Shown here: positions 4,551 to 36,358 of the stretch, one piece after another
Layout of the letters: every line of letters starts with the position of its first letter
How positions within the stretch are numbered: the stretch's first letter is position 1
Virus record (IMG/VR): IMGVR_UViG_3300045988_132703
Source of the DNA: a virus
Direction: 5' to 3' (one strand)
DNA: 64,000 nucleotides
Translations under genes and position numbers: made by a program
Notes under the pieces: generated by a model
What the model saw: the letters and a program-made list of their open reading frames with translations, nothing else
What the model was told of the DNA's origin: nothing
The model's database searches: none

Positions 4551-6392
4551 ATGCCGGGTAAAACACTAAAAACTAGAATACAAAACAAAGTTGATTCATT
4601 AGCTAACTTACAAGCTAACAATCCCTATATCCTTGCGGGCGAGCTTGTAACTGCTTACACTACCGTTGGAGTTAAGCAAGAGGATGGTAACGTAGTTCAA
4701 AAGAGAGTCGCTTATATCTATGTAGGTCCGGGCAACTTTAACGATTTGTATCCTATTGTAGGACCTTCTGCCGATGTTAAGGCTTGGGCTAAGGTTGATA
4801 ATTTCGTTGATGTCGTCATTGAAAAATTAACTAAGACTGACGAGAAAGGCGACATTGCCGAGAATGATACAGTTAATACAATGATTAACCGTATCAATAA
4901 TAATTTCGCGCAAATTAAAACTGATATGCCATCTAAGACTTCCGATTTAACCAATGATGGCGAAGGTGCTGAAATCCCTATTAAGGATTTTATTACTGGA
5001 TATGAATCTTATTAGTTTGTAAGTCGGGATTCAGTTAAAAATTATATTGACACTTTTGGTTTGCAAGATCTAACGGAAATCAAAAAGAAACTTGCTGAAC
5101 TCGAAAAGAAAGTCGATGATAATTTAAAGGCGATTGATGAACGCTTTAAGTTATATTATACTAAGACTGAAATTAACGATTTACTTGCCGGTTATCTTAA
5201 AGGCGTTCAGATTGGCGATAAAGACGGTGGAGTTGTACTTAGTCCTGCTTCTACTGTGGTTACTTCTGAACAGATTTGGACTTAGATTAAAGATACTTCT
5301 CAAACAGATATTGAGAAGATTGCAGATGCAGCTGCTTCTACTGCTCTTAGCCAAGCCAAGACTTATACTGATACTAAGTTAAGTGAGTTTATCACTATTT
5401 CTTATAAAGGCCCTTATGATTCTTATGCAGCTTTACTTGCGGATAATGTTGATGGTGGCAAAGCTGGCATTATTTATCTTGTAAATCATAATCATAATGA
5501 TAATGACAGTTATGATTCAACAGATAGCGATATATTTGATGAGTACATTTGGGTTACACGTCAAGATGGCGGACAGCCTGGCTTTGAAAAAGTTGGTAAC
5601 ACAGATGTCAAGTTAAGCAACTATCTTCAGGCTGCGCTTAAAGAAGATAAAACTGGCGTTCTTGAAGGCGACGAAGGCTCTGTCTCTAAGATTGAGGTTG
5701 TTGAAGACCCAGTTGGTAGCGGCAACAAGTTCTTTAAAGTAACTTATAAGACTTTAATCAAGAGCGAGACATTTGATGCAGGTAAAGTTGCTGTTGGCTT
5801 TGGCAATGGAGCATTAAAGTCATCTGCTTTAGTTAATATTCCTTTAGCCGGTATCGCAGCAGGTAGTACAGAATCTGATATTAACGAAACTACTACACTT
5901 GGTGGAGCAATCAGAAACTTAGAAACTAAGATTGATGATGCAAAAGCCGACGGTGTTAAAGAAGTTGATATTGCTACTGATGGTGGTGTTGATGTTAGTG
6001 GTGGCCCGATTACCAATAAGGGCACATTAAAGGTTAGTCACTCTTTAAGAGCAACTGCAACTTCTGCTGTTAGTGATACTGTTGGTTCTGCGGATGAGCG
6101 CACTTATGTTAAAGAAATTGCGCTCGATAAATATGGTCATATTGTTAGTGTTACTACTGGTAAAGAAACTAATGTTGATAGTTATGCTACTGGTGGTTCA
6201 TTTGCCGCGGACAATACAAAAATTGAATTAACCGTTACTGGTACTGGTCCTAATTTTAAGACATTCAAAGCAGGACTTAATAAATTGCCTGCTATGTTAT
6301 TATCTCAAACTGATGCCGAAGATGATTTCTTAGTACTTTATTGCGGCACTAGTAACATTTTAGCTTCAACAGAGCAAGTCAATTATACCTAA
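4551..6392 (+). CDS. tail fibre protein
   Basis: Track ORFs 4551-5015 and 5061-5285 plus 1.1 kb of Met-free open frame are one frame; TAG at 5013 and 5283; TAA 6390-6392; coiled-coil segment then G/T/S-rich repeats. Confidence 0.7.
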
Positions 6393-6407
6393 TAAGGTGG
6401 TGAGTTG

Positions 6408-6809
6408 ATGCTCAAGGCTAGAATACAACTTAAAAAAGACACCAGCAAGGCTTGGCGCATCAATAATCCTGTTCTATTGGATGGCGAAGCTGGTTATGAA
6501 TCAGATACAAATCTAATGAAAGTTGGCGATGGAATCCATCGTTGGCTTGAATTAGACTATACAAACTCTGGCGCGACTGCAATAGCAAGCACAGCTAACT
6601 ATGCTATTAACGCAGGTGCACTAGGCGGAACTTCTGCGGCTGATTGGGCTAAGAAGTTCGATAATTATGTTTTAAATACTCGAATTGAAGCCGTTATGTC
6701 AACTGCTTCAGCCGCGGACAAAATACCAACTTCAATAGCAGTTACTAATTGGGTTAAGTCGCAAAATTTCGCGGGTGCTGGTGATATTACTACTTGGGAG
6801 GACTTTTAA
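6408..6809 (+). CDS. tail-fibre N-terminal-domain-like protein
   Basis: KKDTSKAW..NPVLLDGEAGYESDTNLMKVGDG pattern common at N-termini of phage fibre proteins; SD AAGGTGGTGA. Confidence 0.6.
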   Translation: MLKARIQLKKDTSKAWRINNPVLLDGEAGYESDTNLMKVGDGIHRWLELDYTNSGATAIASTANYAINAGALGGTSAADWAKKFDNYVLNTRIEAVMSTASAADKIPTSIAVTNWVKSQNFAGAGDITTWEDF

Positions 6810-9800
6810 TGGCTAATAAATTATTAAAACCAAAGAGAGGTAGAGTAGAGAACCTGCCAAAATTGGCTGTTGAGGATGGTTCTCTTATTTTTGCTTATGA
6901 TACTAAGTCTCCAACTAGTACTGTTTTAGTTGATGTTGGAGAAACTAGATATGAGTTATCTGCTGCAACGGCGAAGAAAGCAGATGATTCTAACGCTCTT
7001 GGCGGCAGTAGTCTTCAAAATATTGTTGATAAGATTGACAATGCGACAGGTGATGGAACTGCTTTTACTGGTTTAGACACTACTACTAATAATAAAGTAA
7101 AGCTAACAAGAGCTAATGGAACCACAGTCGAAAAAACGGTTAATAATGTCTCCAATGCTTCGACTGCTGATTACGCAAAAGTGAGTAATAAAATTGGAAC
7201 AGGAACTGTTGGTTCATCAACTAAGCCAGTTTATATTAATGCTGGTACTCCTACTGCGATTAGTTCTATTCCATCTACTTTTGTTACAGCGCAGCAAATA
7301 AATGGTATTAATCTTGATACTTTGCGCACGCCAGGCAGATATTTTGCAAACGGGAGTAATACCAATACTGGTAAGCCAACTGGTGTTGATGCTTTTGCGC
7401 TGGAGATTCTTTAGAGTGCGGCCGGATGGTATACTCAAATTTGCTATGCTTCTGATGATTAGGAGAAGCAATTTGTTCGTTATTATAATTCCGGTACTTC
7501 TTCTTGGAGCGATTGGGTTGAACAAAATCGTTTAAACACTAAGACTCAAAGTGGTTATGCTCCCGCGCCAAATGCAGCAAATAAAGTTTATCGAACTGAC
7601 GCAAGTGGTAATCCTGGTTGGGGCACATTGAACGATGGTTCTATTGGTAAACTTGCGTCTACTGTTACTCTTGGTTACGGTAATGGTGCAATGATTGACT
7701 AGAATAGCGATACTTATCGTCAGCGTATCAATATTTTTGATAATGCAACAGCTAATGATGCAGTATTTAGTTTCTAGCAATCAACAGACGCCGGAAAAAC
7801 CTATAAAGATTTATTTGTTATTAATGATAATGGTACTGTAGTCGCATCAACATTCCAAGGTGCGCTTAAAGGAACAGCAGATTATTCGAAGAACTCTGGT
7901 GCTCTTGGTGGCAGTAGTCTTTAGAACATTGTTGATAAAATTAATAACTCTACTGGTGATGGAACTGCTTTTACTGGTTTAGATACAACTACAAACAATA
8001 AGGTTAAATTAACTAGAGCCAATGGCGGCACAGTTGAAAAGACAATTAATAATGTATCTAATGCTTCAACTGCGGATTATGCAAAAGATTCAGATAAATT
8101 AGATGGATACCATGAAACAGATTTTCTTCGTTATCGTGGCGCGACGGGTACATCTGCGGACTCTTTATGGAATCAAATTGGAATTAAAGAATTTGATAAT
8201 TGTTATCCAGATGGATTAAACGGTATCTATCCTTACGGAGCAGTAGTTTCTTTACCAACTCCAAATGTTCGTTTTGATATTTGGGTAAATCGTCAGTCGT
8301 CTAATGGCGTAACAAATGGCTTACAATATCGTTCTGGTTGGACTACTGATAAAAGGCCTTGGAGAATGTTATTAGATAGTGTTAATTTTACACAATATGC
8401 AGCAAATAAAAACGCTTACAATAGTGCATCAGTTTCCAATGCAACTATTACTCTTGGTCGTTCTGATGGTTCAACTGGTACAACTTTAACTGTCAACAAT
8501 GTAGCTCATGCAACCAACGCTGATCTAGCTAAAAATTCTAACGCTCTTGGCGGTTCTTCACTCAAGAATATTACTGATAGAATTGATTCCTCTATTGCTG
8601 CTAATGACGCCATGCACTACATGGGCACTCTTGGTGCAACAGCTCAAAAACCAACCATTACAGCTTTACCTACAACTGCACGAATTGGCGATGCTTATAA
8701 GGTTATAACTGCCGGAACTTATTCTTCAATAGCAGCTGAAGTAGGAGATTTATTTATTTACTCTGGCTCTTGGACATTAATTCCATCCGGTGATGATGGC
8801 AATGTTTATGTTGGAGATTCAAAGAGTTCAAAATTTGCTGCAAAGAGCAATAATATTGTTGTTGCAGTTGGTGATTAGAAAGTAGCGAGTGCAGCAAATG
8901 TAAGTGCCAATGCAGGTACAATTAGCGCATTATAGAGTACTATGACGTAGTTGAAAGCTAATCAAGGTACTGTTACAACTTTAAATGGTAGTAAAGCTAC
9001 TTTTAGTACAGTTAATGGTTATTTAAATGGTAATGCAGATAGTGCAACTAGATTAAAATCACAAGGAAAATTAACCACTGCTTTATCTGGCACAATGATG
9101 GATACCCAGAAAGGACTTTGGATGACCGAAGCATATGCAACTACTAATGCAAATCCTTGTACTTATGGAAATGTGCTTCATCTATCAGGCGTAAATGCTG
9201 GTGGGCAAAATGAAATTTTCTTCGGTTGGCAGGGCGGAGGTTCTGTAATGCCGGGAGTTTTTGTACGTAGCCATAGAAATTTTGTAGGCTCAGCAGATGA
9301 CACTTGGTCAGCTTGGACCAAATTAATTAGTGGTGCAGACGCTCTTCAAACTTCAGCTTCTGCTATTGCTTCTACTAATAATTACTTTACTGCTGGGGCG
9401 ACTACTGCTTATGTTGCAGCAAAAACCGCAAGTGCAGTTGGTAATTATTTGCCCTTATCTGGTGGAACAATGAATGGAACTGCAATAATTAGTTGGGCAG
9501 ATTCTGGTACTTGGGGAAATACCACAACTTTTCCAGTTAAACGAGGAGGTTTATCTTGGACTGGTTAGTCAGATGGCGTTGAATTATTTGCGGAAGAAAC
9601 TGGCGGTGACAATCTCGAGCTAATTGCAAAATTTACTGATGATAATTCAAACGGTTTTACAATTCGTAATGCTAGTAATAATCAAGTAATTCGTTTGGCT
9701 GCTTCTGGCGCGATTACAGGTGGAAGTTTAGATGTCTCTGGAGGAATTTCGGGCAGTAACTTATCCCTTTCCGGCAGAGGCGTTCAATTAAATAGAAAAA

Positions 9801-10279
9801 GCGGGGCGGCCAATGGGCGAATTTCATGGTGGGATTCAGGTTATCATACTTGGGTTAGTTATATGTCAGTTCCAATTGATGGCGCAGCGCCAACGGGTGG
9901 AAAACCATCTGTTTTTGGAGATGTAATATCTTGGGCATAGAGAAGTTTAATTTAGAATAGTCCTGGTTTCGGATGGATTTGGGAGTCTGCGACAGAAGGA
10001 ACAATGACTTCTACTTTAGCCGTTACTCCTTTAATGTCTCTTGGCTCTGCTACCGGTAATTTAAAGGTTAAGGGTACTGTTACTGCTACTACCGTAAATG
10101 CTTATTTAAATGGAACTGCTAAAAATGCCGATACAGTAGATGGTTTCCACGCAGTCGATTCCAATAGTTTGACAGCATCGGCAACTAGTGCTAAAATAGT
10201 ATTAGCAAAGAATGTAGTATCCTATATTAGTTCATTAGGCTTGGCTACAACATCTCAACTCGAATGGATTGAATTTTAA
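6809..10279 (+). CDS. giant tail fibre protein (1156 codons)
   Basis: GGAGG then ATG 6809; five track ORFs (6794-7414, 8366-8878, 8951-9568, 9695-9940, 10004-10279) all in frame 2, joined by 11 in-frame TAG (7412, 7460, 7700, 7775, 7922, 8876, 8933, 8948, 9566, 9938, 9953); no TAA/TGA in frame. Confidence 0.75.
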
Positions 10280-10293: not shown

Positions 10294-12432
10294 ATGAGTC
10301 GTTTCAAGATGAAAAGAGGTCAGGAGAGCAAAGTAAATTCACTGGCTAAGGAGGACGGCTCCCTCATTTTTTCATTAAATGGAGCTAATAATAGCACAGT
10401 TAGATTAGATCAAACAGTTAATGGAACTGTGCAGAGATTGGGAATTGCGGTTGATAAAGCAAAAGATGCCGATGGCGTTATTGATTATAATGAACCAACT
10501 AGGCATATTAAAATTGGTTATGCTGGTGCAGGGCTAAGTACTTCTAATTTAAATTATATTGCTGGATATACTAATAACGGTACGCAAATTAAAGATGTAT
10601 CGAAAGATGTTCTTAAAAACTGGTTAGGCACAATGGGTAGTGCAGATAGCGCGAAAGTTATTGAGCCTTTTGAAAATGCAACTGCCAATGCTTCGCGCAA
10701 TGTATGGTTTAGTGATTCAGAGGTTAGAAATAAGCCTGTTTATAACGATAATTTTAAATATAATCCTATAACTCAAATTTTAACTACTAACATTAGTGGT
10801 TCAGCTGAATTTGCTAATCTAATAAAATATTATCAATCGGATAGCCAGTTTTATGCTTCTGGAGATACTCATATTATGGAATTGGGTTATCTGAAATGTG
10901 ATGGCAGTTATTAGAATTTAACTCTTTATATTACGAGTGCTTTTTGGGGTAATTAGCGCGGTTCTGCAGATTTTATTAATATTTAGTAGGATACTAATAC
11001 AAATAGTTCTGCAACTGTTCAATCTTATGTTCATGCAATTAGGATTGGCGGAAATTATGATAGAACTTTTTACGCTTATAAAGATTAGACTAATAAAAGA
11101 CTTTATCTTTATGTCCAAGTCATTGGTGGAAATTCTTACGGCAAATGGAACGTATCTGTTATTCAATGTTCAAGTGGATATAATGCTTGGGTATCCGAAT
11201 TTGGTTTTAATAAAACTTTACCAATGGGCTATGAAACCGTTTCAAAAACATTTTTAGGTACGGCTGATAATTCTAACGCTCTTGGAGGTTCCTCTCTAAG
11301 CCAAGTCCTCGCTTCTGCTGGTGGCGGCAATGCCTTTACGGGTTTAGACACAATCACTAATAACAAAATCAAACTCACTCGCGCGAACGGTCAAACAGCA
11401 GAAAAAACCATCAACAATGTTTCTAATGCATCTTCTGCTGGTTTCGCATCAACAGCAACCCTAACTGCTTATCCTCAAGGTTTCGATTCTCACACAACTT
11501 CTGCTACTTGGGGCAACACAACGGGTACTTTTTTGACTGGTTGGCATACTTCGTCTGGCGGCGATGTTGCCTTCATGGATAATAATCCGTCAAGTGGAAA
11601 AGTTTCAATGAAGCTTGATGGTTATTTCTATCAAAACGAAGGCGCGAATAGGGTTCTTGATACCAGTGACGCGGCCAATTATGTTAAAAAATCTGGCGAC
11701 ACCATGACTGGCGCACTCAATTTTGCAAATAATACATGGAATAAAGTTGGCGACGATGTTAAAATTGGAGATCATAATATCGCGGGTAGCTTAGGCGTTA
11801 TTGGTGCTAATGGACAAACTCGTATTGATTGGTGTCAATATGATAATGCTAGCAAATATCAAGGCATTGTTTATGATGGCACAAAACTAGCAACTAGCGG
11901 CACATTCAAAGCTGATTATTTTGAGGGTACTATCGCTAATGCAACCAGCGCGGAAAATGCTTCTCATCTAGGTGGCAAACCATCTTCTGATTATGCTTTA
12001 AAGGCTGAATTATCAGGAGATATTAACGTTTTATCTGCTAAGCGCTTGCCGTCTTATCAATCAGTCTCCGTAGCTAACTCTTTCTTTTATCGCTATGGTA
12101 CAGCTGGCAATACTTCTGATGGCGGAGCTTGGACTGGATTTCCTTCAGCAACTCTCTATTCTGAAGCCTCGACAGCAAATGGTTTTGGTAGCGCACTCTT
12201 CCAAAAGAAAGTTGGTGTTCTTCATCTTGCTTCTGGTTCTTCTGCGCATGACCTTGTATTCCAAGCCGGTGGCACCAATGGCGGTATTGCTTATGTTGCA
12301 ACTGGACGCAATCCCGCTTACATTCTCGATACTCTTAACTACAAAGATAAAGCATACACATTCAACAAATTAACTGCATCAAGTACATTTACTGCAACTA
12401 GTGGTGTAGTTATCGACGGAGGAAGTTATTAA
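10294..12432 (+). CDS. tail fibre protein
   Basis: Track ORFs 10294-10914 and 11224-12432 share a frame; joined via TAG 10912, 10954, 10984, 10987, 11086; carries a third copy of the GGSSL..FTGLDT.TNNK.KLTRANG module. Confidence 0.7.
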
Positions 12433-16611: not shown

Positions 16612-16755
16612 ATCCTAATAGTTCAACTAGCACATTAAATGGTTGGTTTTATACAAGCTAACCTAAAACAGTTAATCCTTATATTCATATTTTTTGTATA
16701 GGAATTTAATTTTATTAAAATTCTTAAATTTATTTCATATAAAATTCTTAATGTT

Positions 16756-16788
16756 AGTGCTCTCCATATTGGAGAGCACTTTTATTTT
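16756..16788 (+). terminator. rho-independent terminator
   Basis: AGTGCTCTCCA-tat-TGGAGAGCACT then TTTATTTT. Confidence 0.65.
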
Positions 16789-16818
16789 AGAACAGAATTT
16801 TTATAGGAGGAAATCGCA

Positions 16819-19176
16819 ATGGACATACTCCTTTTCGGGACTCTTCGAAAATATATTGACGACACTCTTCAAGGTGCTGGTGCGCTTAAAGGTGAAAAAG
16901 GCGACCGCGGAGAAAAAGGTGTTCAAGGTCCAAAAGGTGATAAAGGTGATAAGGGAGACACCGGCCCGCAAGGACTTCGTGGTATTCAGGGCTTAACTGG
17001 CGCTACTGGTGCGAAAGGCGAGCGTGGTGCGCAAGGTGTCCAAGGATTGACTGGACCTCAAGGTATTCCTGGCGTACAAGGTATCCAAGGTCCAAAGGGC
17101 GAGAAAGGTGACAAAGGCGAAACCGGTCCCATTGGCAAACGCGGTGTTCCTGGAGTCAATTATAATATTAAATATTTTTTGTCTACTCTTAACGAATTAA
17201 ATGCCATCACTCCTGCTACTGGTTATGACGAAGCTATTTTTGCTTACGTAGCAGAAAACAAATCAATCTACTATTCTTATGAAAGCTCTCCTTGGACTTT
17301 TTTCTCTGATGCGTCTAATCTTTAGTTTGCGCGCGGAGAGCAAGGTGAGCAGGGTCCAAAAGGTGAGAAAGGCGACAAGGGTGACCGAGGCATTCAAGGT
17401 ATCCAAGGACCTCAAGGTATCCAAGGTCCTCAAGGTCTTCAGGGCATTCAAGGTCCAAAGGGTGATAAAGGTGACAAAGGCGACAAAGGCGACTCGCTTA
17501 CTTGGAATGAAGTTCCAGAAGCTGCGCGTAAAGAACTTAAAGGTGAAAAAGGCGATAAAGGCGATACTGGCGATTCTGGTGTTTATTATGGTCCAACTGA
17601 GCCAGAAATTAATCAAGAAAAACTTGTTTGGATTGATTCATCAGTAGAAGAACCGGCTACTACAATTGACATTGCTAACATTCCTGGACTTCAAAAGGAA
17701 CTTGATTCTAAAGTTCAACTCCCCTCTAAAATTGAAAATGGTACTCAGCTATTTCCCGTTGCAACTTCAAAAGGTACGTCATGGGTCGCTCTTGAAGAAA
17801 CTGTCAACGGAATTGTTAGTGAATGTGTAAATATCATTGTGCGTGGCACAGATAATGCAACTCTTAAAGGCACTGAAATTTATCTTCATGACGTAACAGC
17901 TAACACTATATCTACTTTTGAATGGAATGGGACCAGTTTGACTGTTTATGTTTTAAATGGACATAAATATTTTATCAGTGGCGCCGAAGTTGAAGGATAT
18001 GAGCCTGTTGCGGATAGTTTACAATATATTGCGCGAGCTGCATAGACTCGTACAATCATTTTATCTTATCCTTGCTCAGAAGAAGCAGAGTATGGTATTC
18101 GATTCTTAATTGAATCATCAGATCCGTCATGCGAGCGCGTTGTAATTAAGAATAATATTACAACTTATGGTGAAGATACTGGTTTAGTGGCTGCTATTGG
18201 TAGTAAACTCGTTATGCCCAAGAATAGTTTTGATGATATTTATCCTTGGTCAGATATTCGCATTGTAACCGACTCTGATAATGCTGCCGAGGCCGCGCAA
18301 ATAATGGTTAAAATTCCAAAGTATTATGTCAAGGTTACTGTTGATGATACCTATGAAACTTGGATGATTAGTCGCTACAAAAAAGCAGGTTATCGTGTCG
18401 CAAAAATGTTTGCTCGTCCTGACGGAACCGAAGCAGACTATTATGAATATGCTCGTTACGAGACTAGTGATACCAATCGTTCTCAAACTGGCGTTACTCC
18501 TCAAAATTCAACCACTATTGAAGCATTTAGAACTGCCGCTCTTGAGTTAGGTGATAATTGGCATCTAGCTGGACTTGCAGACCGTACTGATGGACTTCAG
18601 ATGCTAATGACTATTGAATTTGCTACTCGCAATATCCAGTCAATAGCAGAAGGTTTGGTTAATTCTAGGACTGTTTCTGATTGCGGTTTGACTGATGGTT
18701 TAACCATTACCGAAGATTCAAAGGGAATTAAGCCTTATTCTGGTATTGTTAAAAATGCTTTTTCTTATCGTGGAATTGAAAATCCTTACGGTAATTTACT
18801 TGAATACGCTGATGGTATTATTTTGAACAATTCTCGTGTGTACTATTGCGACGATTGGACTCGTTGGAGTAATTCAATTAATTCAAGTTACGTTCAAGCT
18901 GTTGGCACGATCCCAACTTTAAGCGGATTTATTACTAAATTGAATTATAATGAAGCTAATCCTTGGATGCGTTTGCCTAGCGAAGTAATTACTGCTGGCG
19001 ATAGCGATAGTAATTATAGCGACTATTATAATGCTCCAACCGCAGATTATACCTTGCCAGTTTATGGTGGCGGTTATTCTACCAATTTGCGCGCGGGCTT
19101 ATTCCACTGGAATTGTACTCGTACTTTTAGTGAAACAAATAGAGATATTGGTTCTCGTTTGGCTCGTAGTTTTTAA
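16819..19176 (+). CDS. collagen-like tail fibre protein
   Basis: Track ORFs 16819-17325, 17839-18045 and 18187-19176 share a frame; TAG 17323 and 18043; two Gly-X-Y tracts ([19 protein letters not shown]...). Confidence 0.75.
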
Positions 19177-21544: not shown

Positions 21545-23560
21545 ATGGATTTAATAAATTTAGCCCTTGTGTAGAAAGCTGTTCGAGATGCTCACGTTGA
21601 TCACATCGGTCCTCAGGGTCCAAAAGGTGATAAAGGAGATAAGGGAGATTCGCTTACATGGGATGACTTAACCGAAGAACAAAAAGCATCACTAAAGGGC
21701 GAGAAAGGCGATAAAGGAGATAAAGGTGATCAAGGTCCTCAAGGAATCCAAGGAATCCAAGGAATCCAAGGAATCCAAGGAGAGAAAGGCGATACTGGCC
21801 CCCAAGGAGAGAAAGGTATTAATGGCACTAATGGTCTTTCTGCTTTTGAAGTATGGCTTGAAACCAATCCCGGAAAAACCGAAGCTGATTTCTTTTTAGC
21901 AATAAAAGGAGATAAAGGCGATAAAGGCGATAAGGGAGATACTGGTGAACAAGGAATCCAAGGAGAAATTGGACCTCAAGGTATCCAAGGAATCCAAGGA
22001 GAGAAAGGTGAGAAAGGTGAAACTGGCGAACAAGGACCTAAAGGCGAATAGGGACCACAAGGCATTCAAGGCATATAGGGTATCCAAGGCGAGAAAGGTG
22101 AAACTGGTGATACTGGACCACAAGGAGAAATTGGACCTCAAGGACCTCAAGGAGTCCAAGGAGAACGTGGAGAGCCTTTCTCAATAAAGAAAATCTACTA
22201 TTCTATTGGTGAGATGAATTCGGATTTTAGTAATACTGATGTTAATATTGGAGAATTTGTACTTATCAATACAGGAAATGTAGAAGACGAGGATAACGCT
22301 AAGTTATTTGTTAAAACCGAGACAGAATATTCTTTTATAACTGATTTATCTGGCACTGCTGGTATTCAAGGTCCTCAAGGAATCCAAGGTATTCAAGGTC
22401 CTCAAGGAATCCAAGGTATCCAAGGAATCCAAAGAGAGAAAGGAGATACCGGTCCGCGGGGAGAAACTGGGCCCGCCGGTTCTGACGGTAAAACCCCGGA
22501 ATACGGCGTTGACTACGGCACGCCGGAGCAGATTGCCGGGATTGCCCAGCAGGCGTCGGAGATTTTGAAACCGGATGTTAATCAGATAAAGGATGATATT
22601 GCTGGGCTGAAAGACTCCAAACAGGACAAGCTTATTGCCGGTACTGGAATCACGATTGCAGAGGATGGGAAGACCATTTCAGCGTCTGGAGGCGAAATCC
22701 TGATTGCGCACAAAGTGTGGGCAGACTGCTACATTGAATTAACCCCAGTGGAAATCGACTACGAAAACTATACAATTACTGTAGCCGATGCATCTGGTGT
22801 GCCGCTGGAAATATCCGGAAGTTGTGTTGATTATATATCTATTACAGACTGGTCCGGGAAAAATGCAACACTTGATATTGCTCCAGTCGAATTGTTTCCA
22901 GTTCAGCTTTTTGCTATCCATGTCGGTGATAACAGGTTACAGTTTTACAATTCGCAGAAAGCGCTAATCCGATTTACAGCCAATGACAACGTTGATATCA
23001 ATCGGTTCAAGATTTATGTTAAGAAGCAAAATGCAACTAGATTATCAGTAGCAAATCTTTATCAAAATCACGCATATCGCATTGTGATGGTTAAACGCGG
23101 ATTTAATCATTTTGTAAGTGGATTCAGTATCAATAATAGTAATAATCGTGATTGGGGCTATTCGTATGGCAATAAGGGTGGAGTTAAATCGTTTGGACTT
23201 GGTTCCAACAACGCAGGCAATTCGTTTTCCTCTACTCAGGTAAATCTCTACGAAACATTTTCTTTTCGTAGTATACCTTATGGTGACACTGTTACGTGTT
23301 CGTTTTTTCCATCCATCATCGATGTCGAAATAGTACCGTCTAAAAACGGAAGTGTATTCGAGCATTGGCTTCATTGGAGAATGTCGTATGTGCAGAGAGG
23401 CAGTAGCACCGTTAAAGAAATAGAATACAGATATACTACAGGAACGCTATTTATGCCATATGAAATTGGATCGATTGTGTCACAATCTGGCAATGCAGGC
23501 AATTATTTTGGGAATGGTACGGAAATGTTAGTGTTTGATAAGGGGGAATGGGTTGAATGA
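21545..23560 (+). CDS. collagen-like tail fibre, chimeric (AT-rich recoded N-part, GC-richer C-terminal domain)
   Basis: ATG 21545 in the same frame as track ORF 22214-23560; TAG 21572, 22049, 22076; long GIQ/GEK Gly-X-Y tracts; composition shifts at about 22440. Confidence 0.75.
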
Positions 23561-26204: not shown

Positions 26205-26288
26205 GCGACTGTGGCCCAGTGGACAAAGGCGGGTGCCTGCAAAGTACTTAATTTTTTATCGTTGGTTCAAATCCAACCAGTCGCTCCA
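26205..26288 (+). tRNA. tRNA-Cys (GCA), unusual 12-nt AT-rich variable region
   Basis: Acceptor GCGACTG/CAGTCGC; anticodon arm GGTGC-CTGCAAA-GTACT (two G.U); T arm GTTGG-TTCAAAT-CCAAC; encoded CCA. Confidence 0.7.
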
Positions 26289-26409
26289 GAACGGAGTTCC
26301 CTACTAGATTCCCAATGGGAATTGAACTTCACGGTTTGGTTGAGTTAGTCCGTCGTCCTCGGTATTGAGTAGACAATCAAGAGGGAAAGATACGAAAACT
26401 CTTTATTAT

Positions 26410-26485
26410 GCGCGAGTAGTCGAATGGCATAGACACTACGCTAAGGACGTAGGATTTGTGGGTTCAAATCCCACCTTGCGCACCA
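26410..26485 (+). tRNA. class I tRNA, anticodon AAG by canonical numbering (identity uncertain)
   Basis: Acceptor GCGCGAG/CTTGCGC, A73, CCA; anticodon arm CTACG-CTAAGGA-CGTAG; T arm GTGGG-TTCAAAT-CCCAC; 5-nt variable loop. Confidence 0.65.
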
Positions 26486-26503
26486 ATAGAAAGGAAAGTT
26501 GCT

Positions 26504-26734
26504 ATGGGCAAATTAAAAATGACCAAGATAGTTTATGGTCGGGCAATGGTTGGAACTGATGCTTATAAAAAGAATTTATCTAGTAAGCGTTCAAAGTGTA
26601 ATGACCAGAAGAGAAAACGAAACTATCGTTCAGCCACAATCAAAACCAATCTGACTTGGGAACAGAAATTGATTCGATGGTTTGAAAAAGTTGAGAAATG
26701 GTTTTTAGATTATTTTGAAAGGTTTTTCGATTGA
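26504..26734 (+). CDS. hypothetical basic protein
   Basis: ATG 26504 after GAAAGGAAAG; upstream part of track ORF 26456-26734 overlaps a tRNA. Confidence 0.5.
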   Translation: MGKLKMTKIVYGRAMVGTDAYKKNLSSKRSKCNDQKRKRNYRSATIKTNLTWEQKLIRWFEKVEKWFLDYFERFFD

Positions 26735-27024
26735 TGAAAATTTTGACTGCACCAGTTATTGATTATGGAGTTCTTGAGGACGAGCTAGTTGACGCTGGTA
26801 TTCTCAAGAGAGAAGATGTTGAAGAAGATTATTCATACATTCTCGGTTTGCTTTTTGCAGATAATTGGAGTTACGATTGTTATTTGAAACTTTATCTCAA
26901 TGACAAGCCTATTCCAAAGAATCTTGACATAAGTGCGACTGTTTATCTGAAAAAGTGCAATGAGATTTATGCTTATTTGCGCGAGAAGGCTCCAGGTTAT
27001 CCGTTCATTTTGATTGAAACTTAA
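26731..27024 (+). CDS. hypothetical protein
   Basis: Track ORF; overlapping start. Confidence 0.55.
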   Translation: MMKILTAPVIDYGVLEDELVDAGILKREDVEEDYSYILGLLFADNWSYDCYLKLYLNDKPIPKNLDISATVYLKKCNEIYAYLREKAPGYPFILIET

Positions 27025-27037
27025 AGAAAGGATTAAA

Positions 27038-27448
27038 ATGAGTAAGAAGAAAAAGAATACTCCTGTAAGTGATTGGGTCTATGACGACTTAATGGAATTT
27101 TACGAGTTTTGCTTTGGCGGCACCCACGTTTTTCGTTCAAACAAAGCTAAAAAGTACCTTTTTGAGATTCTTACTCACGATTCTAATTGGACTGTTGAAA
27201 ATGTTCATAATGAATATTATGTTCTTTATCACAATCCAGTTTATCAACCTCGTGCGAAAATTCATATTCAAGCAAAAGATACTAATTTGATTTGGCTTTT
27301 GTGGATTGCATATACGCATGATTTCTACAAGTATAACAAACTTCCTTTTGAAAAAGGAAAAGGCAAAGACTATTGGCGTTTCGTTGAAGATTTTAAACGT
27401 TATCTTACTTATAAAGGTCTTCATTGGACAGAAGATGACTTTCAATGA
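27038..27448 (+). CDS. hypothetical protein
   Basis: ATG 27038 after AAAGGA; track ORF 27014-27448. Confidence 0.55.
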   Translation: MSKKKKNTPVSDWVYDDLMEFYEFCFGGTHVFRSNKAKKYLFEILTHDSNWTVENVHNEYYVLYHNPVYQPRAKIHIQAKDTNLIWLLWIAYTHDFYKYNKLPFEKGKGKDYWRFVEDFKRYLTYKGLHWTEDDFQ

Positions 27449-27449
27449 T

Positions 27450-27478
27450 TTGACTTTTGATAGATAATATGCTATAAT
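27450..27478 (+). promoter_or_regulatory. early cassette promoter
   Basis: TTGACT-17-TATAAT, TGc extension. Confidence 0.7.
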
Positions 27479-27484
27479 ATTTAT

Positions 27485-27635
27485 AGAAAATGAGATTTAT
27501 TCGTAGATAAGAATTAAAAATCGCTAAAGACAATAATGTTGCTCTAATGTGGGAACGTGAAGGTTACGGTATATCCGATACTGTTAAACGAAATCCCTAT
27601 GAGCTTGCGTGAGATTGAAACTGCTCACCGAATGA
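27485..27635 (+). ncRNA. candidate promoter-driven non-coding transcript
   Basis: Full cassette promoter 27450-27478 is followed by only 6- to 20-codon ORFs until the next cassette. Confidence 0.3.
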
Positions 27636-27636
27636 A

Positions 27637-27665
27637 TTGACTTTTTATGATTTCTATGATATAAT
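27637..27665 (+). promoter_or_regulatory. early cassette promoter
   Basis: TTGACT-17-TATAAT, TGa extension. Confidence 0.7.
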
Positions 27666-27671
27666 ATTTAT

Positions 27672-27853
27672 AGAAAATGAAAGACAGAAGCAGCAAATAC
27701 TTCTAACAACTTGAACTTAAAATTCAAATATTGGTAAGAAGCTGTCTTGATGTGGGTTGAAATGAGATTCTAAGACGATTTCTGCAAACTTTTAATGTTT
27801 TGATTGAATTATTAGATGATAAAAACGAAAAAGTCGTCTTGATTTTTTATTAT
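27672..27853 (+). ncRNA. candidate leader or small RNA upstream of tRNA-Asn
   Basis: Cassette promoter 27637-27665, no ORF over 9 codons; paired segments AGACAG/CTGTCT and AAGACGA/TCGTCTT. Confidence 0.3.
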
Positions 27854-27928
27854 GGATGGTTCGTACAACGGTTAGTACAAGAGACTGTTAATCTCCTAAT
27901 GGGGTTTCGACTACCTCACCGTCCGCCA
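27854..27928 (+). tRNA. tRNA-Asn (GTT)
   Basis: Acceptor GGATGGT/ACCGTCC; D arm GTAC-AACGGTTA-GTAC; loop CTGTTAA; T arm GGGGT-TTCGACT-ACCTC; CCA. Confidence 0.8.
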
Positions 27929-27963
27929 AAAGCGATAACAGAACGCTTCTTAATATCCCATTG

Positions 27964-28027
27964 CCAATAGGGGAGCATTGAGTAGCTATCAATGAGATTA
28001 AGGTGCCTCCACACCGGCCTTATATTT
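27964..28027 (+). repeat. conserved structured leader upstream of GIY-YIG gene, copy 1
   Basis: CCAATAGGGGAGCATTGAgTaGCtATCAATGAGATTAAGGTgCcTCC..ACCGGCCTTATATTT; nested stems GGAG/CTCC and CATTGA/TCAATG. Confidence 0.7.
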
Positions 28028-28043
28028 AATTATTCTGGAGGGA

Positions 28044-28961
28044 ATGGTTATGAAAGTTATTTGCGGGATTTATAAAATTACTAATCAAGTTAATGGTAAA
28101 TGTTACATTGGACAGAGCGTAAATATCGCTCGTCGATGGAGAGACCATAAAAAGACAAGTTCTGATGCAAGCTATAATGCTTATGATAGTGTGTTGCATA
28201 AAGCATTTAGAAAATATGGAATAGAAAATTTTTCTTTTGAAGTATTAGAAGAATGTTCTCAAGAAAGTTTAAATGCTAAAGAAATTTATTGGATAAATTA
28301 TTTTAATTCAGATGATTCTTAGAGAGGATATAATTTAACTCCTGGTGGAGATAATGTTGGTTAGAAATGTCGAAAATTAACTGACGAGCAGCTTTAGGAA
28401 TTAAAGCGTCTTTTAAAAACTACATTAATATCTCAAACTGATTTAGCAAAGTAGTTTAATATTAGCCAAATGGCAGTTAGTGATATTAATAGAGGAATAA
28501 GTTATCCAGATTTAAATGAAGATTATCCTTTAAGAGATTCTAATGCAATTCGAGGTTGGAATTTGCATCCAGAGAAGAACGGATTAAAAACAGAATCAAA
28601 AGTTGATAAATCTAATAAGTCTAGTAAATCTGAAGAGTTTATTAAAAGTAAAGATAAAGATAAACCTTTTCCAAAAGTAAAAATTAAAAATATAAAAATT
28701 TGTCCTGTTTGTGGAAAGGAATACGATAGTAAAGCAAAAACTTGTTCTGTTAAATGCGGAAGAATTCGTGTTAAAAAAGTTAAAATTGTTCCTAAACGGA
28801 GTGCTTTAAAGTACTTAATTCGCAATTACTCGTTCGAATGGATTGGTCGTTAGTTTGGTGTAACTGGAAATGCAATAAAGAAATATTGTGATAAATTTGA
28901 TTTACCAAGAACTAAAAAAGAAATTAATTCTTACTCGAATGAAGAATGGAAAAAGATTTAA
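28044..28961 (+). CDS. GIY-YIG homing endonuclease (Seg/I-TevI-like) with Zn-ribbon and HTH tail
   Basis: CGIYKITNQVNGKCYIGQS..RWRDHK, GYNLTPGG; 5 in-frame TAG (28320, 28362, 28395, 28452, 28851) join track ORFs 28044-28322 and 28470-28853; TAA 28959. Confidence 0.8.
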
Positions 28962-28985
28962 AATTTGCCGGCTTGCCGGCTTTAT

Positions 28986-29060
28986 GCATCTGTAGTTCAA
29001 TGATAGAATAACAAACTTTTAATTTGTATGATGCCAGTTTGACTCTGACCAGATGCACCA
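28986..29060 (+). tRNA. tRNA-Lys (TTT)
   Basis: Acceptor GCATCTG/CAGATGC; anticodon arm ACAAA-CTTTTAA-TTTGT; T loop TTTGACT; CCA. Confidence 0.75.
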
Positions 29061-29121
29061 TTAGCTCGTCTATCATGTGTAGAAAGAGTCTCTGAAACCG
29101 TTTATACGGTTTCTATTTTAT

Positions 29122-29207
29122 CCCTCATTAGACCATAAGGATTGGGGCTGGACTGTAAATCCAGTGTGTTTTACGCCGGGATGGTTCGATACCATCATGA
29201 GGGACCA
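29122..29207 (+). tRNA. tRNA-Tyr (GTA), class II
   Basis: Acceptor CCCTCAT/ATGAGGG; anticodon arm CTGGA-CTGTAAA-TCCAG; long variable arm; T arm GATGG-TTCGATA-CCATC; CCA. Confidence 0.85.
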
Positions 29208-29230
29208 TTTATTTTAAGAAAGGATATATT

Positions 29231-29515
29231 ATGGACTTTTTTGTTGGAAATTTTGCTGACTGGTTCAATAGTTATGCTAGGAATAAGTTATTTCGTCTTT
29301 GGTATAAGGAGGATGAAAAACTTGGTCTGGATGATGGCTATGATGGAGTTTGTCAGTATGTTTATCTGCGACAAGCGATCAATCTTGGTAACGATTGGTT
29401 GATTGGTTATGCTGTATTTGATGAACGAGAAAAAGATAATATGTATCCTAGTTTGAATTGGGCTAGATTGAGTGAAATTGATTTGGCCTGGTACAAAGAT
29501 GATGAGGAAAAGTAA
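29231..29515 (+). CDS. hypothetical protein
   Basis: Track ORF between tRNA-Tyr and tRNA-Asp. Confidence 0.55.
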   Translation: MDFFVGNFADWFNSYARNKLFRLWYKEDEKLGLDDGYDGVCQYVYLRQAINLGNDWLIGYAVFDEREKDNMYPSLNWARLSEIDLAWYKDDEEK

Positions 29516-29530
29516 TTTTCCTCTTTATAA

Positions 29531-29614
29531 TGTCCTGTAGCGCAAATGGATAGAGCGCCACCCTGTCACGGTGGAGGTATATTATTGCCGGTTCGAACCC
29601 GGTCAGGACAGCCA
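29531..29614 (+). tRNA. tRNA-Asp (GTC), unusual 12-nt AT-rich variable region
   Basis: Acceptor TGTCCTG/CAGGACA; anticodon arm CCACC-CTGTCAC-GGTGG; T arm GCCGG-TTCGAAC-CCGGT; CCA. Confidence 0.75.
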
Positions 29615-29904
29615 GATGCAATTCGGAAGGATTGCGAGTCTTGCGCCTAGGAGATAAGGCGTCAAATTGGATGATTTGTGACCTAAGCAGGTCGTTAAAA
29701 GGCTCAGTTTGGTAAAGACTGTAAAAAATTACCAGCCGAGAGAGGATGGATTTGAGGTAAACTACCACCGGCGCTTAGCGATATGTGGCTTAGTCATTTG
29801 TATTCGGCTTAATACAAAGAAAACGAAAGTAACCTTGAACGCATAGGAGTTCTAAAACTCTATGGACTAGACGTGAGGGATAGTCTGAAAACTCCCTCTT
29901 ATAT
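29615..29904 (+). ncRNA. structured non-coding spacer between tRNA-Asp and tRNA-Gly
   Basis: 290 nt with no plausible ORF; many local hairpins (GCGCC/GGCGT, GACC/GGTC, TGGTAA/TTACCA, GAGGG/CCCTC). Confidence 0.3.
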
Positions 29905-29979
29905 GTGCGAGTGGTATAACGACAATTATCCTTGCCTTCCAAGCAAGGGACGAGGGTTTAACTCCCTTCTCGCACACCA
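29905..29979 (+). tRNA. tRNA-Gly (TCC)
   Basis: Acceptor GTGCGAG/CTCGCAC; anticodon arm CTTGC-CTTCCAA-GCAAG; T arm GAGGG-TTTAACT-CCCTT; CCA; D loop lacks GG. Confidence 0.65.
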
Positions 29980-30464
29980 TTAATCAAAGTTTCTAATTAG
30001 GTTCAATCCTCCCAGAGGATTATAGCTGAAGTGGAGCAATGCCTGGGCTAGACACGCATTGTACGGTACACTGAAACACCAAATAGACCGCGGTATAATA
30101 GGTGTTATAATGCCGAATACTTAATTAAAGTAAAAGAACACCAATCTTTGATTAAATTGGGCTGGAGTTTATCTCCTTGGTCCACCAATCCAGTGGAATT
30201 TCTACTGGCGGCTTTATGACAGGCACGTAAGAAATCTGTCCCTCTGAATAGATACTTGCATAACAGCAAACTTTTCTAGTTGGAAGAATAAAAGTATTAC
30301 TTGATAATACTTTGATCGCTCGCGCATTCAAACTAGAGGTATCTAGTAATAAAAGAGGTCTGGAATGAATGTGTGAGTGTAGATTCTCAGTAATTACAGA
30401 ATGAGGATCGGTTCTTCACCGCCTAAGAGTGAACCCTCGCGGGAGTGGGTATCTCCCGTTTCAT
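29980..30464 (+). ncRNA. structured non-coding region downstream of tRNA-Gly
   Basis: 485 nt with no plausible ORF; composition less AT-rich than flanks; hairpins e.g. AATCCTC-CCA-GAGGATT. Confidence 0.3.
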
Positions 30465-30537
30465 GTCTCCTGAGCTGGGAACTCACGGATGTTTCATAAG
30501 CAACCTATGCACAGTTCAATTCTGTGAGGAGACACCA
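30465..30537 (+). tRNA. tRNA-like element, possible CAT anticodon (non-canonical D region)
   Basis: Acceptor GTCTCCT/AGGAGAC, A73, CCA; T arm CACAG-TTCAATT-CTGTG; candidate anticodon arm GATGT-TTCATAA-GCAAC; D arm does not fold canonically. Confidence 0.35.
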
Positions 30538-30587
30538 TTTACAGTTATAGCGGTGGCTGTAACAGAAATTTTTATCGTTTTAACAAA

Positions 30588-30617
30588 GGCCTCGGAGTAA
30601 AATCTGAGGTCTTTTTT
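30588..30617 (+). terminator. terminator fused to cassette promoter
   Basis: GGCCTCGGA-gtaaaa-TCTGAGGTC then TTTTTT. Confidence 0.7.
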
Positions 30618-30618
30618 A

Positions 30619-30647
30619 TTGACTTTAAGACAAATTTATGATATAAT
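30619..30647 (+). promoter_or_regulatory. early cassette promoter
   Basis: TTGACT-17-TATAAT, TGa extension. Confidence 0.7.
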
Positions 30648-30678
30648 ATTTATAGAAATCAAGAAAGGAAGTTGGAGA

Positions 30679-30912
30679 ATGACAGTTAAAGATTTGCTCA
30701 ATGTACTGTGCAAGTATCAGTGGATTGAGATTGCTGGCGATTTTTATAGTGAAAGTCCTCATTTCACGGGAACTGTAAAAGATTTAATGGGCGAAGATGA
30801 ATATGAGTTCCTTTGCGCGCAGAAAGTTAATGGAATATTTTCTGAAGCTGAAGATAAAAGCCATTATATTCTTGTTTATTATAATGATTCTGAGTTAGGA
30901 CAGGTGTGGTAA
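30679..30912 (+). CDS. hypothetical protein
   Basis: ATG 30679 after AAAGGAAGTTGGAG of the cassette leader. Confidence 0.55.
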   Translation: MTVKDLLNVLCKYQWIEIAGDFYSESPHFTGTVKDLMGEDEYEFLCAQKVNGIFSEAEDKSHYILVYYNDSELGQVW

Positions 30913-31130
30913 TGATTTTTAATGGAAAAGAAGTTGGAGAACTTCATCATCTAACCTTTCGCCATAGTAATTTTCCTAATAAGCAAAATTTTGCTCCAAC
31001 TGATTTATTTGGCGTAAAGAAATTCTTACGCGATCATCCAAAAGTTAATGTGCTTGATTTTTCGCAATTCTGCTCGGATAACACAGTCTATACCACTGTC
31101 TGGTATACTGTCCCGCGCAATCAAAATTAA
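30912..31130 (+). CDS. hypothetical protein
   Basis: TAATG overlap; track ORF 30906-31130. Confidence 0.5.
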   Translation: MIFNGKEVGELHHLTFRHSNFPNKQNFAPTDLFGVKKFLRDHPKVNVLDFSQFCSDNTVYTTVWYTVPRNQN

Positions 31131-31149
31131 ACTCAAAAGGAGGAGCATT

Positions 31150-31341
31150 ATGGAAATGTTTGCTTGGACTTTGTATTACACTTATACCAAGGATGGTAAA
31201 TCTACTCGACGAGTTTCTACCATTAATGCCCCTACTCTTGGACGAGCATTTCAGATCTTACGTCATTATATGATTAAAAATTCTGACGAATATATTACTG
31301 ATCTTTGCGCAGAGCGCAAGAAAATTAAGAAAGAGGATTAA
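31150..31341 (+). CDS. hypothetical protein
   Basis: AAAGGAGGAG then ATG 31150. Confidence 0.55.
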   Translation: MEMFAWTLYYTYTKDGKSTRRVSTINAPTLGRAFQILRHYMIKNSDEYITDLCAERKKIKKED

Positions 31342-31342
31342 A

Positions 31343-31852
31343 GTGAAAGAATTTTTAAAAACGGCAATAGCAGTTATTTTGTCAGCTATAATTATTTTTG
31401 GATGCTGTTTTTATACTTATGCTGACAAAGAATTGCCTGGTAAGGAAAAACAAATTACTGTCACGTCAGAATATAATGACAATGTGACTATTAAGAAGTT
31501 GGCTGAGCAATATCGAGGAGCATGGCAAGAGGGAACAGATTTTTCTCCTATCGCGCGGCGAATGGATTTAAAATTCGAAGGCAAAATTCAGGCTGACCAA
31601 ATTTCTGTCTCTGAAGATGGACGATTGATTGCTTCTACCAAAGATTTTTATTGGGACTATGGTAAAATCCCTGGATTTTATGCTATCTGTAATACCGAAA
31701 GTGATCCTTCTCCCTATGGCGCAAAGATTGTAATTTATCTCAATAGCACTAATCAAAAAAAGTTCAGTACAGGGCAGACTATTAAATTTAAAGCTGACTT
31801 TTGGAGGATGGATGGACGTACAATGGTTTTAACGAATGGAGTACTTGAATAA
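31343..31852 (+). CDS. membrane-anchored or secreted protein
   Basis: GTG start; N-terminal hydrophobic segment AIAVILSAIIIFGCCFY. Confidence 0.55.
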   Translation: MKEFLKTAIAVILSAIIIFGCCFYTYADKELPGKEKQITVTSEYNDNVTIKKLAEQYRGAWQEGTDFSPIARRMDLKFEGKIQADQISVSEDGRLIASTKDFYWDYGKIPGFYAICNTESDPSPYGAKIVIYLNSTNQKKFSTGQTIKFKADFWRMDGRTMVLTNGVLE

Positions 31853-32481
31853 TGCTTTTGCTTTTGATTGTCCACATTATAATTTTTATTATAATGGGTT
31901 TTATTTCTTCTTTGTGCGGCGTAACATATGACGAAGATGAACTTATAGGTATGATATGTCCTTTTATTGGAATTGCAACAACTATTTATGCTATTCAAAC
32001 AGCAATAGAAAAGAAATTAGATAAATATGATTTGATTGATGTTGATTTTAAAGATGTAAATGATAATATTATTCGAGAAGATGACAGGTCGATTCATATA
32101 GACCATAAAGTATGCTTGTCTTACAAACAGTTTGTCGATTTTTATTCTATTAATCCAGCGCGTTGGAACATTGTCAAGCAAACATATCCTGAAAGGCGCT
32201 ATTTGAGATTTAAAGACGGCGAAACTTGGTACTGGGTTTATTTTAAAACTGCTAAGGAATATAGAGCCGCAGTAAAATATTATTATATGCGAGAAGAAGT
32301 AAGAAATGGTCCTCGCGCAGTTAATTATAACCCGCAAGAAAAAGAAAAACTCGACAAAGATACGGCTGCTTTACTTCGTTGTGTTCAAGCTGACATCAAT
32401 AAAATTAAATTCCAAGCAGAATCTGAGATCAATGAAGCTACCGATGGTATCAAAAAAATTTCAGAACGTCTAAATAATTAA
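31852..32481 (+). CDS. membrane protein
   Basis: Two N-terminal hydrophobic helices; TAATG overlap. Confidence 0.55.
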   Translation: MLLLLIVHIIIFIIMGFISSLCGVTYDEDELIGMICPFIGIATTIYAIQTAIEKKLDKYDLIDVDFKDVNDNIIREDDRSIHIDHKVCLSYKQFVDFYSINPARWNIVKQTYPERRYLRFKDGETWYWVYFKTAKEYRAAVKYYYMREEVRNGPRAVNYNPQEKEKLDKDTAALLRCVQADINKIKFQAESEINEATDGIKKISERLNN

Positions 32482-32488
32482 TTTTAAG

Positions 32489-32519
32489 TCAATAGGTATC
32501 TAGCCTATTGACTTTTTTA
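32489..32519 (+). terminator. terminator overlapping -35
   Basis: TCAATAGG-tatctag-CCTATTGA then CTTTTTT. Confidence 0.55.
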
Positions 32520-32536
32520 TTTATATATGGTATAAT
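32508..32536 (+). promoter_or_regulatory. early cassette promoter
   Basis: TTGACT-17-TATAAT, TGg extension; -35 overlaps the terminator stem. Confidence 0.7.
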
Positions 32537-32569
32537 ATTTATAGAAAATGAGAAAGGAAGAATGATGAG

Positions 32570-33394: not shown

Positions 33395-33771
33395 ATCATC
33401 CTCGTACTCGTGCAGAACGTCGAATCGCGAAGAAAAAAGAGTTCAATAGAAAGTATTTTTTGAGCCAGAATGCTGACTATCCAGCACCTTATTTTTTAAC
33501 TTATGCTCGGAACAAAGGGCGGCGTCGGACTTTACATACTAAACTTCCTGTTGATTATGATTTTAAAGTACCTGGAGAATATAGAAATTATCATTCTTGG
33601 CGCGGAAAGTACAGAGTTGAAAAAATTTATTTTCGTCAGCTTGGTCATGCTAGTCGTTATCATTATTTCAAGAGGAAAGCAAATCAAGCCGTACGTAGGA
33701 ACAAGAATTTTTCGACTCGGAAAAGTAATGATTATCGTAGAGTTTATGAATATGCTTGGATGGTGGATTAA
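33385..33771 (+). CDS. highly basic protein
   Basis: Track ORF; R/K/Y-rich throughout. Confidence 0.5.
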   Translation: MFMNHPRTRAERRIAKKKEFNRKYFLSQNADYPAPYFLTYARNKGRRRTLHTKLPVDYDFKVPGEYRNYHSWRGKYRVEKIYFRQLGHASRYHYFKRKANQAVRRNKNFSTRKSNDYRRVYEYAWMVD

Positions 33772-34634: not shown

Positions 34635-34663
34635 TTTACTTTTCTCCAATCTTATGCTATAAT
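34635..34663 (+). promoter_or_regulatory. early cassette promoter (variant -35 TTTACT)
   Basis: TTTACT-17-TATAAT, TGc extension. Confidence 0.6.
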
Positions 34664-34674
34664 TATTATAGAAA

Positions 34675-35024: not shown

Positions 35025-35031
35025 ATTTATA

Positions 35032-36344: not shown

Positions 36345-36358
36345 AAGTAGCTTTATTT

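Follow-up and report, generated by a model that had tools for sequence, protein, structure and literature searches.

The DNA analysed here (the window) is a 64,000-nucleotide stretch of IMG/VR virus record IMGVR_UViG_3300045988_132703. Its main subject is a predicted tail-fibre gene with the codon TAG repeatedly in frame, in which one TAG stands within a 62-codon module at a place where a second copy of the module has CAA, a glutamine (Gln) codon. When TAA and TGA were taken as the only stops, the + strand from 16 to 23560 resolved into abutting genes, nearly all of which contained in-frame TAG. The features used in the argument are as follows.

16-23560, + strand: late (tail, tail-fibre) module of tightly packed genes, with 50 TAGs in validated frames.
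6809-10279, + strand: predicted tail-fibre gene of 1,156 codons, ending in TAA, with 11 in-frame TAGs.
6995-7180, + strand: module copy 1, 62 codons, with CAA at 7016-7018; the codon is CAA in all six relatives whose alignment covers it.
7901-8086, + strand: module copy 2, 62 codons, with an in-frame TAG at 7922-7924.
8543-8586, + strand: partial third ALGGSSL motif of the same gene (repeat family D3), with AAG (Lys) at the equivalent position, 8564-8566.
10294-12432, + strand: second tail-fibre-like gene with 5 in-frame TAGs; synonymous share of its codon differences against relatives, 0.60.
11278-11460, + strand: module copy in this neighbouring fibre gene (family D1, 72% nucleotide identity), with AGC (Ser) at the equivalent position, 11299-11301.
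22049-22078, + strand: Gly-X-Y repeats of collagen type in which TAG occupies the Y position (GE-TAG at 22049, GI-TAG at 22076).

The product of gene 6809-10279 was assigned as a phage tail fibre by homology to annotated fibres and by its place in the tail gene module. By tblastn, residues 708-907 were 33-40% identical to annotated tail fibres of P1, P7, Goslar, Gifsy and others; a Pfam search of the fibre genes gave no meaningful match. The enclosing open reading frame (ORF), 6785-10279, is open solely when TAG is read through, and its eleven TAGs start at 7412, 7460, 7700, 7775, 7922, 8876, 8933, 8948, 9566, 9938 and 9953. The N-terminus of the second fibre-like gene (10294-12432) is paralogous to that of the first. 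Elsewhere in the late module, PHROG tail and tail-fibre matches were obtained for 16639-19176, and collagen repeats (Pfam Collagen) were found in 21545-23560.

In a preliminary description made from the letters of the window, the modules at 6995-7180 and 7901-8086 had been proposed as paralogous copies in which CAA was exchanged for TAG. Their translations were found exactly as written there, with a single TAG in the second copy, and a gap-free codon alignment confirmed that CAA 7016-7018 and TAG 7922-7924 are positionally equivalent. The two copies, both in frame within the same ORF, are identical at 153 of 186 nucleotides (82%). Of the 62 codons, 33 agree, 24 show synonymous differences and 5 non-synonymous ones, the CAA/TAG pair being among these five. 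The pair was also found independently by a repeat search (family D2, 187 nucleotides, 82%), which recovered the third copy described in the next gene at 11320-11448 (72%). The ALGGSSL motif has four copies, which is more than had been noticed, and the critical codon across them is CAA (7016), TAG (7922), AAG (8564) and AGC (11299). In orthologues of the fibre gene the copy-2 site is TAG in one (L001), CAG in another (L002) and AAA in three (L003, L004, L005). Since Gln codons make up about 3% of the codons in the late gene module (242/7,498), it is mildly improbable (p about 0.03) that one of them would face a single TAG by chance, and as one data point the pairing suggests a glutamine reading. 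However, the critical position is variable and carries Gln only in the closest paralogue, so the single site is weak evidence for Gln when taken by itself. The claim that it would suffice without external homologues was thus too strong, whereas Gln as the decoded residue was supported by the DNA of relatives. From the sequence, the copy-2 tryptic peptide NSGALGGSSL-X-NIVDK is predicted to be distinguishable from the copy-1 peptide ADDSNALGGSSLQNIVDK.

Related IMG/VR loci (contigs of about 111-179 kb) were aligned to the window ORFs by tblastn, and the actual codons opposite the TAGs were read. The synonymous share of the codon differences against relatives served to tell real frames from spurious ones. 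This fraction was 0.46-0.90 in almost all real frames and 0.36-0.43 in three short late ORFs, and it was 0.0-0.25 in nearly all off-frames. For the fibre gene it was 0.53 overall, compared with 0.02-0.2 for off-frame ORFs, and every segment between TAGs that had more than about 45 compared changes gave 0.37-0.79. Behind the TAG of module copy 2, 21 differences were synonymous and 4 non-synonymous. Within validated genes, TAG was shared by the window and its relatives at 54 sites. The longest frame without TAA or TGA spans 1,164 codons, for which the chance at local base composition is about 6e-27. When TAA and TGA alone are taken as stops, the validated genes lie end to end or overlap, and none needs TAG as a terminator; the terminator is ambiguous in one early gene (59422-60129), where a TAG at 60109-60111 lies six codons ahead of TAA. 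Purifying selection on the reading frames persists beyond the TAGs, and TAG is a sense codon in the phage lineage of the window.

To identify the residue, each distinct non-TAG codon was counted once per site in validated genes. Opposite the TAGs of the window, relatives had CAG 13 times and CAA 13 times, together 26 of 41 distinct site-codon combinations; the remainder were GAA (3), TGG (2), TTA (2) and nine further codons seen at single sites. Several of the non-Gln replacements are noise from cross-hits between non-orthologous homing-endonuclease paralogues. In the opposite direction, the window had CAA at 26 and CAG at 13 of the 66 sites where relatives carry TAG. The tabulation of codons aligned to each TAG, which the preliminary description had recommended, therefore placed CAA and CAG far ahead of any other codon. 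Five one-step neighbours of TAG, namely AAG, GAG, TCG, TAT and TAC, did not occur opposite TAG in orthologues at all. Because CAA is two mutations from TAG and these one-step neighbours are absent, the pattern reflects synonymy rather than mutational proximity. The ratio of CAG to CAA opposite TAG was 1:1 against a background of 1:4 in late genes, and this enrichment of CAG fits a mutational path TAG-CAG-CAA.

A likelihood test over the 20 amino acids, in which the substitution profile of each residue was taken from the same alignments, gave scores of -41.0 for Gln, -75.6 for Trp, -79.0 for Met, -83.2 for Arg and -85.7 for Lys, so that Gln stood about 35 log units above the next residue. Two collagen-like genes provided a further comparison: of the 23 GI? 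triplets whose last codon is a standard one, 21 are GIQ, and one GI-TAG occurs in addition. At the collagen TAGs the codons of relatives were CAA (22049) and CAA or CCA (22076). The exchange spectrum of TAG is that of Gln, and TAG is almost certainly read as glutamine in this uncultured phage, as judged from these alignments. Distant paralogues within the window were also tried as a guide to the residue and set aside; TAG aligned there with K, I, A and Q without clear preference, and the three homing endonucleases compared were 41-47% identical.

No tRNA with the anticodon CUA, hereafter tRNA(CUA), was found in the 64-kb window by ARAGORN, at Rfam gathering scores or among Rfam matches with E up to 5. 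An identical tRNA(CUA) of 76 nucleotides including CCA was found in five related loci (L017, L019, L022, L023 and L024; 100% identity). Exact copies are present in 9 IMG/VR contigs of the lineage, and none was found in the GTDB bacterial and archaeal genomes. In the five syntenic contigs examined the gene maps about 19 kb upstream of the point that corresponds to the window start; in IMGVR_UViG_3300045988_146661, for example, its place is near 66.2 kb, and window position 1 corresponds to about 85.6 kb. It stands about 1-1.7 kb downstream of tRNA-Gln(UUG) in five of the five contigs examined, and further tRNA clusters are present upstream of the window start in syntenic relatives. The tRNA(CUA) is at the Rfam tRNA gathering score (31.5 bits, RF00005) and has a canonical cloverleaf, D loop and T loop; the D loop contains AAUGGUUA and the T arm GGUUCGAUUCC. 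Pyrrolysine tRNA (tRNA-Pyl) has a small D loop without G18-G19, lacks the T-psi-C motif, has a variable loop of 3 nucleotides and comes with pylS and pylBCD genes; given its canonical D and T loops, the tRNA(CUA) is not Pyl-like.

The tRNA(CUA) is 63% identical to the phage tRNA-Gln(UUG), which is no closer than to Tyr, Leu and Ile tRNAs. Assignment of its isotype by likeness to other phage tRNAs was attempted and abandoned, as identities of 50-66% did not discriminate. It shares with the phage tRNA-Gln the pairs U1-A72 and G2-C71 and the loop context C32-U33...A37-C38. With E. coli tRNA-Gln it has U1-A72, G2-C71 and G73 in common. No domain of release factor RF2 or of an aminoacyl-tRNA synthetase was found in the scanned window ORFs, and none was seen by eye among the inspected upstream ORFs of relatives.

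The use of TAG differed strongly between gene classes. In late genes outside the homing endonucleases there were 45 TAGs against 216 CAA plus CAG codons, so that TAG made up about 17% of Gln-type codons, whereas early genes had 1 TAG against 160 (Fisher p = 2e-9 for early vs late genes). This late-early separation is very clean. The single TAG in validated early genes is the one at 60109-60111 mentioned above, which may still be an effective stop early in infection. Homing-endonuclease-like genes had 22 TAGs against 51 CAA plus CAG. They are listed below.

321-1391, + strand: homing endonuclease (PHROG homing endonuclease), TAG-rich.
28044-28961, + strand: GIY-YIG homing-endonuclease-like gene (Pfam GIY-YIG) with 5 in-frame TAGs.
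35607-36344, 37442-38296 and 48063-48563: similar TAG-rich selfish genes.

Apart from these five homing-endonuclease-like genes (GIY-YIG, HNH-like and one unassigned), which have up to 8 TAGs in 284 codons, no gene outside the tail module is TAG-rich. Three of the five are located between tRNA genes. Gene 35607-36344 had no counterpart in the fetched relatives, as expected of a mobile element.

Taken together, the results are best explained if the window comes from the genome of an uncultured phage, roughly 175-183 kb long, with TAG as a sense codon for Gln (genetic code 15), a reading to which we give a probability of about 0.92. The 62-codon module would be a duplicated tail-fibre domain, in copy 2 of which a Gln codon was replaced by the functionally synonymous TAG; the route probably led through CAG, which L002 still has at the copy-2 site. 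The decoder would most likely be a phage-encoded suppressor tRNA with the anticodon CUA that lies outside the window, in syntenic relatives next to the cluster that holds tRNA-Gln(UUG). The conserved tRNA(CUA) of the relatives is observed; the genome of the window itself probably carries it too, and it would presumably be charged with Gln. Since the use of TAG is restricted to the late tail genes and the homing endonucleases, full-length products would be possible only once the suppressor is active, and the distribution of TAG may thus serve timing, in line with a model put forward earlier for late genes of recoded phages.

Several observations weigh against this explanation. The window lacks a tRNA(CUA), and we infer its presence in the same genome from relatives. 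In that tRNA the T stem holds a bulged A, the Rfam score is low and no derivation from the phage tRNA-Gln(UUG) is recognisable; the case for Gln charging therefore comes wholly from the codon-exchange data. The site 7922 has AAA in three of five orthologues, and the other paralogous copies have AAG or AGC there. Public database proteins give no independent help. Many full-length relatives of the fibre (about 1,145-1,160 amino acids) are present in the public protein collection, many of them on contigs of about 160-183 kb, and one protein (P0001, recorded on a contig of 178,695 bp) is identical to the window fibre with Q at every TAG. It carries Q because the gene caller already used a TAG-sense code, so such residues are circular and cannot be counted as independent evidence.

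There is a small chance that the suppressor has an origin other than tRNA-Gln and is charged in an unusual way, with TAG acting as a shared 'late-only' switch for virion genes and homing endonucleases. Such charging could proceed, for example, through the host GluRS/GatCAB pathway, or through GlnRS by way of U1-A72, G2-C71, G73 and U35. TAG versus CAA/CAG differs between the window and its relatives at about 50 aligned sites, the relatives being 75-97% identical in protein.

It is unlikely that TAG acts as a leaky, suppressor-dependent stop which attenuates or delays expression, so that truncated and read-through products coexist, host RF1 competes and some early genes may end at TAG. This would agree with the early gene that would run from 59422 to 60111 under the standard code, with TAGs within the last 10 codons of several late genes, with the modest share of TAG among Gln-type codons in late genes and with the lack of RF2 or any other termination-changing factor in the window or the inspected upstream stretches. 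However, a gene with 11 TAGs would need very efficient suppression for any full-length fibre to be made, and no validated gene requires TAG as its terminator. A leaky stop also overlaps with the glutamine reading and does not replace it.

That TAG is a sense codon for a residue other than Gln, whether Lys or pyrrolysine, or Glu, Trp, Tyr, Leu or Ser, is very improbable. In its favour are AAA at site 7922 in orthologues and AAG in one paralogous copy, K as the commonest residue opposite TAG (7 times) among distant homing-endonuclease paralogues, the ARAGORN label 'tRNA-Pyl' for the CUA tRNA and the overall sequence of this tRNA, which is not clearly Gln-like. However, Lys and Trp fall 45 and 35 log units below Gln in the likelihood test, and orthologues replaced TAG by CAA or CAG in 26 site-codon combinations and never by AAG, GAG, TAT, TAC or TCG. 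The CUA tRNA itself fits the canonical tRNA model: its D loop has G18-G19 and its T arm has GGTTCGATTCC, features that tRNA-Pyl lacks. No PylS- or PylB/C/D-like match was found in the scanned ORFs, which comprised most window ORFs of at least 160 amino acids.

Finally, the proposal that TAG is an ordinary stop, that the fibre gene and its neighbours are pseudogenes left in fragments as a phage or prophage decays and that the CAA/TAG pair is a nonsense mutation would suit a presumably standard-code host, a window without suppressor tRNA and a region that the standard code splits into short ORFs (longest stop-free stretch in the window, 509 codons), but it is effectively refuted by codon changes that stay mostly synonymous past each TAG, by the 54 conserved TAG sites and the specific exchange with CAA and CAG, by the 1,164-codon frame in which TAA and TGA do not occur (p about 6e-27), by the same architecture in many related contigs of roughly 100-180 kb and by the tRNA(CUA) conserved in relatives.

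Between 24 and 54 kb the window contains tRNA clusters and early-type genes.

26205-38409, + strand: two tRNA clusters with 14 ARAGORN calls plus tRNA-Glu(UUC); none is CUA and none is tRNA-Gln.
30619-53377, + strand: early-type genes (RNA ligase, SPFH, phosphatase and others) without internal TAG.

The window and the upstream regions of relatives together hold about 30 tRNA genes. The tRNA-Glu(UUC) at 35509-35578 was detected by Rfam only (30.3 bits) and missed by ARAGORN; conversely, Rfam did not confirm Tyr 29122-29207 and Glu(ctc) 36569-36660, both called by ARAGORN. Some calls were unusually long (84-93 nucleotides), namely 26205-26288, 29122-29207, 29531-29614, 36569-36660 and 36843-36928 in the window and 3589-3681 in L009. 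The length of tRNA-Ile(tat) differs between relatives (93 or 78 nucleotides), a variation that points to insertions or introns in tRNA genes. A sub-threshold Rfam match at 35262-35334 to the Faecalibacterium prausnitzii HDV (hepatitis delta virus)-like ribozyme (25 bits vs a gathering score of 44, E = 1.9) is probably due to chance. Genes are oriented on the - strand from 54 kb onward. At 53740-54125, in a non-coding gap, the + strand consists almost purely of A and G over about 400 nucleotides. This polypurine tract coincides with the + to - flip of gene orientation and with a sign change of the GC skew; possible interpretations are a boundary element of replication or transcription, or triplex-forming DNA.

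Just upstream of the window start, relatives carry NrdG and a UvrD-like helicase with an intein-like insert. In L001 the helicase ORF (95-2302, 735 amino acids) contains no TAG, and its match spans 2.2 kb in one contig and 1.1 kb in others, which has the appearance of an intein-like insertion. In L022, a few kb downstream of the suppressor tRNA, a radical-SAM/SPASM-like ORF (5907-7598) adjoins a small Cys-rich ORF ending in CTSCTGTCSGGCSSC; the pair resembles a modified-peptide cassette of the RiPP (ribosomally synthesized and post-translationally modified peptide) type. A megablast search with 24 kb returned no nucleotide match to GenBank phages, and GenBank phage records gave distant protein matches only. 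Distant protein homologues of gene 2043-2876 were found in Enterocloster and Clostridium phages and on human-faecal contigs. The window contains no terminase. The phage probably infects a Clostridia-like gut host.

In E. coli, the supE tRNA-Gln(CUA) inserts Gln at UAG and causes a weak mutant phenotype in a standard-code genome. Unlike supE, TAG in this lineage is a conserved and selected sense codon at dozens of sites, and the tRNA is not an obvious anticodon mutant of the phage tRNA-Gln. The likeness to pyrrolysine decoding is that a dedicated CUA tRNA would read UAG as sense and that ARAGORN prints 'tRNA-Pyl'; the differences are the canonical D and T loops, the exchange with Gln rather than Lys codons and the absence of pyl genes from the scanned ORFs.

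It has been reported that recoded gut phages use TAG for Gln in late genes, carry suppressor tRNAs and include a preferentially recoded intron endonuclease, and an alternative code in late structural and lysis genes was proposed to delay translation until the code change acts (bioRxiv 10.1101/2021.08.26.457843). The reading of TAG as Gln in crAss-like phages was confirmed by metaproteomics (PMC9523058). The lineage described here resembles such code-15 gut phages (crAss-like, Lak and TAG-using members of clades named by Borges et al.) in having TAG in structural and late genes aligned with Gln, avoidance of TAG in early genes and a phage tRNA(CUA). Its TAG-rich homing endonucleases parallel the preferentially recoded intron endonuclease of the TGA-recoded Agate phages, and with about 180 kb it matches in size the recoded clades with large genomes (Agate, 154 +/- 27 kb; two others of about 200-210 kb). 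It differs in that the parts inspected contained no RF2 or aminoacyl-tRNA synthetase, which are reported for only some members, and in having no nucleotide match and only distant protein matches to any phage record of GenBank. The phAss-1 group (proposed Phassvirus) consists of human-gut phages of 136 kb that have TAG in 41 ORFs and carry three suppressor tRNA genes (PMC10607447). Like phAss-1, the present lineage is uncultured, comes from human-gut-type samples, has TAG in characteristic phage ORFs and has its own suppressor tRNA; unlike phAss-1, it has a genome of about 180 kb and so far one tRNA(CUA), and no DNA similarity to GenBank phages was detected.

The phenomenon is known as genetic code 15 in phages, and the lineage of about 180 kb is apparently undescribed. 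The finding opens no new question; it adds a tRNA-rich lineage of roughly 180 kb to the catalogue of phages recoded to read TAG as Gln. Annotation of the window needs translation table 15; the standard code fragments every large tail gene.

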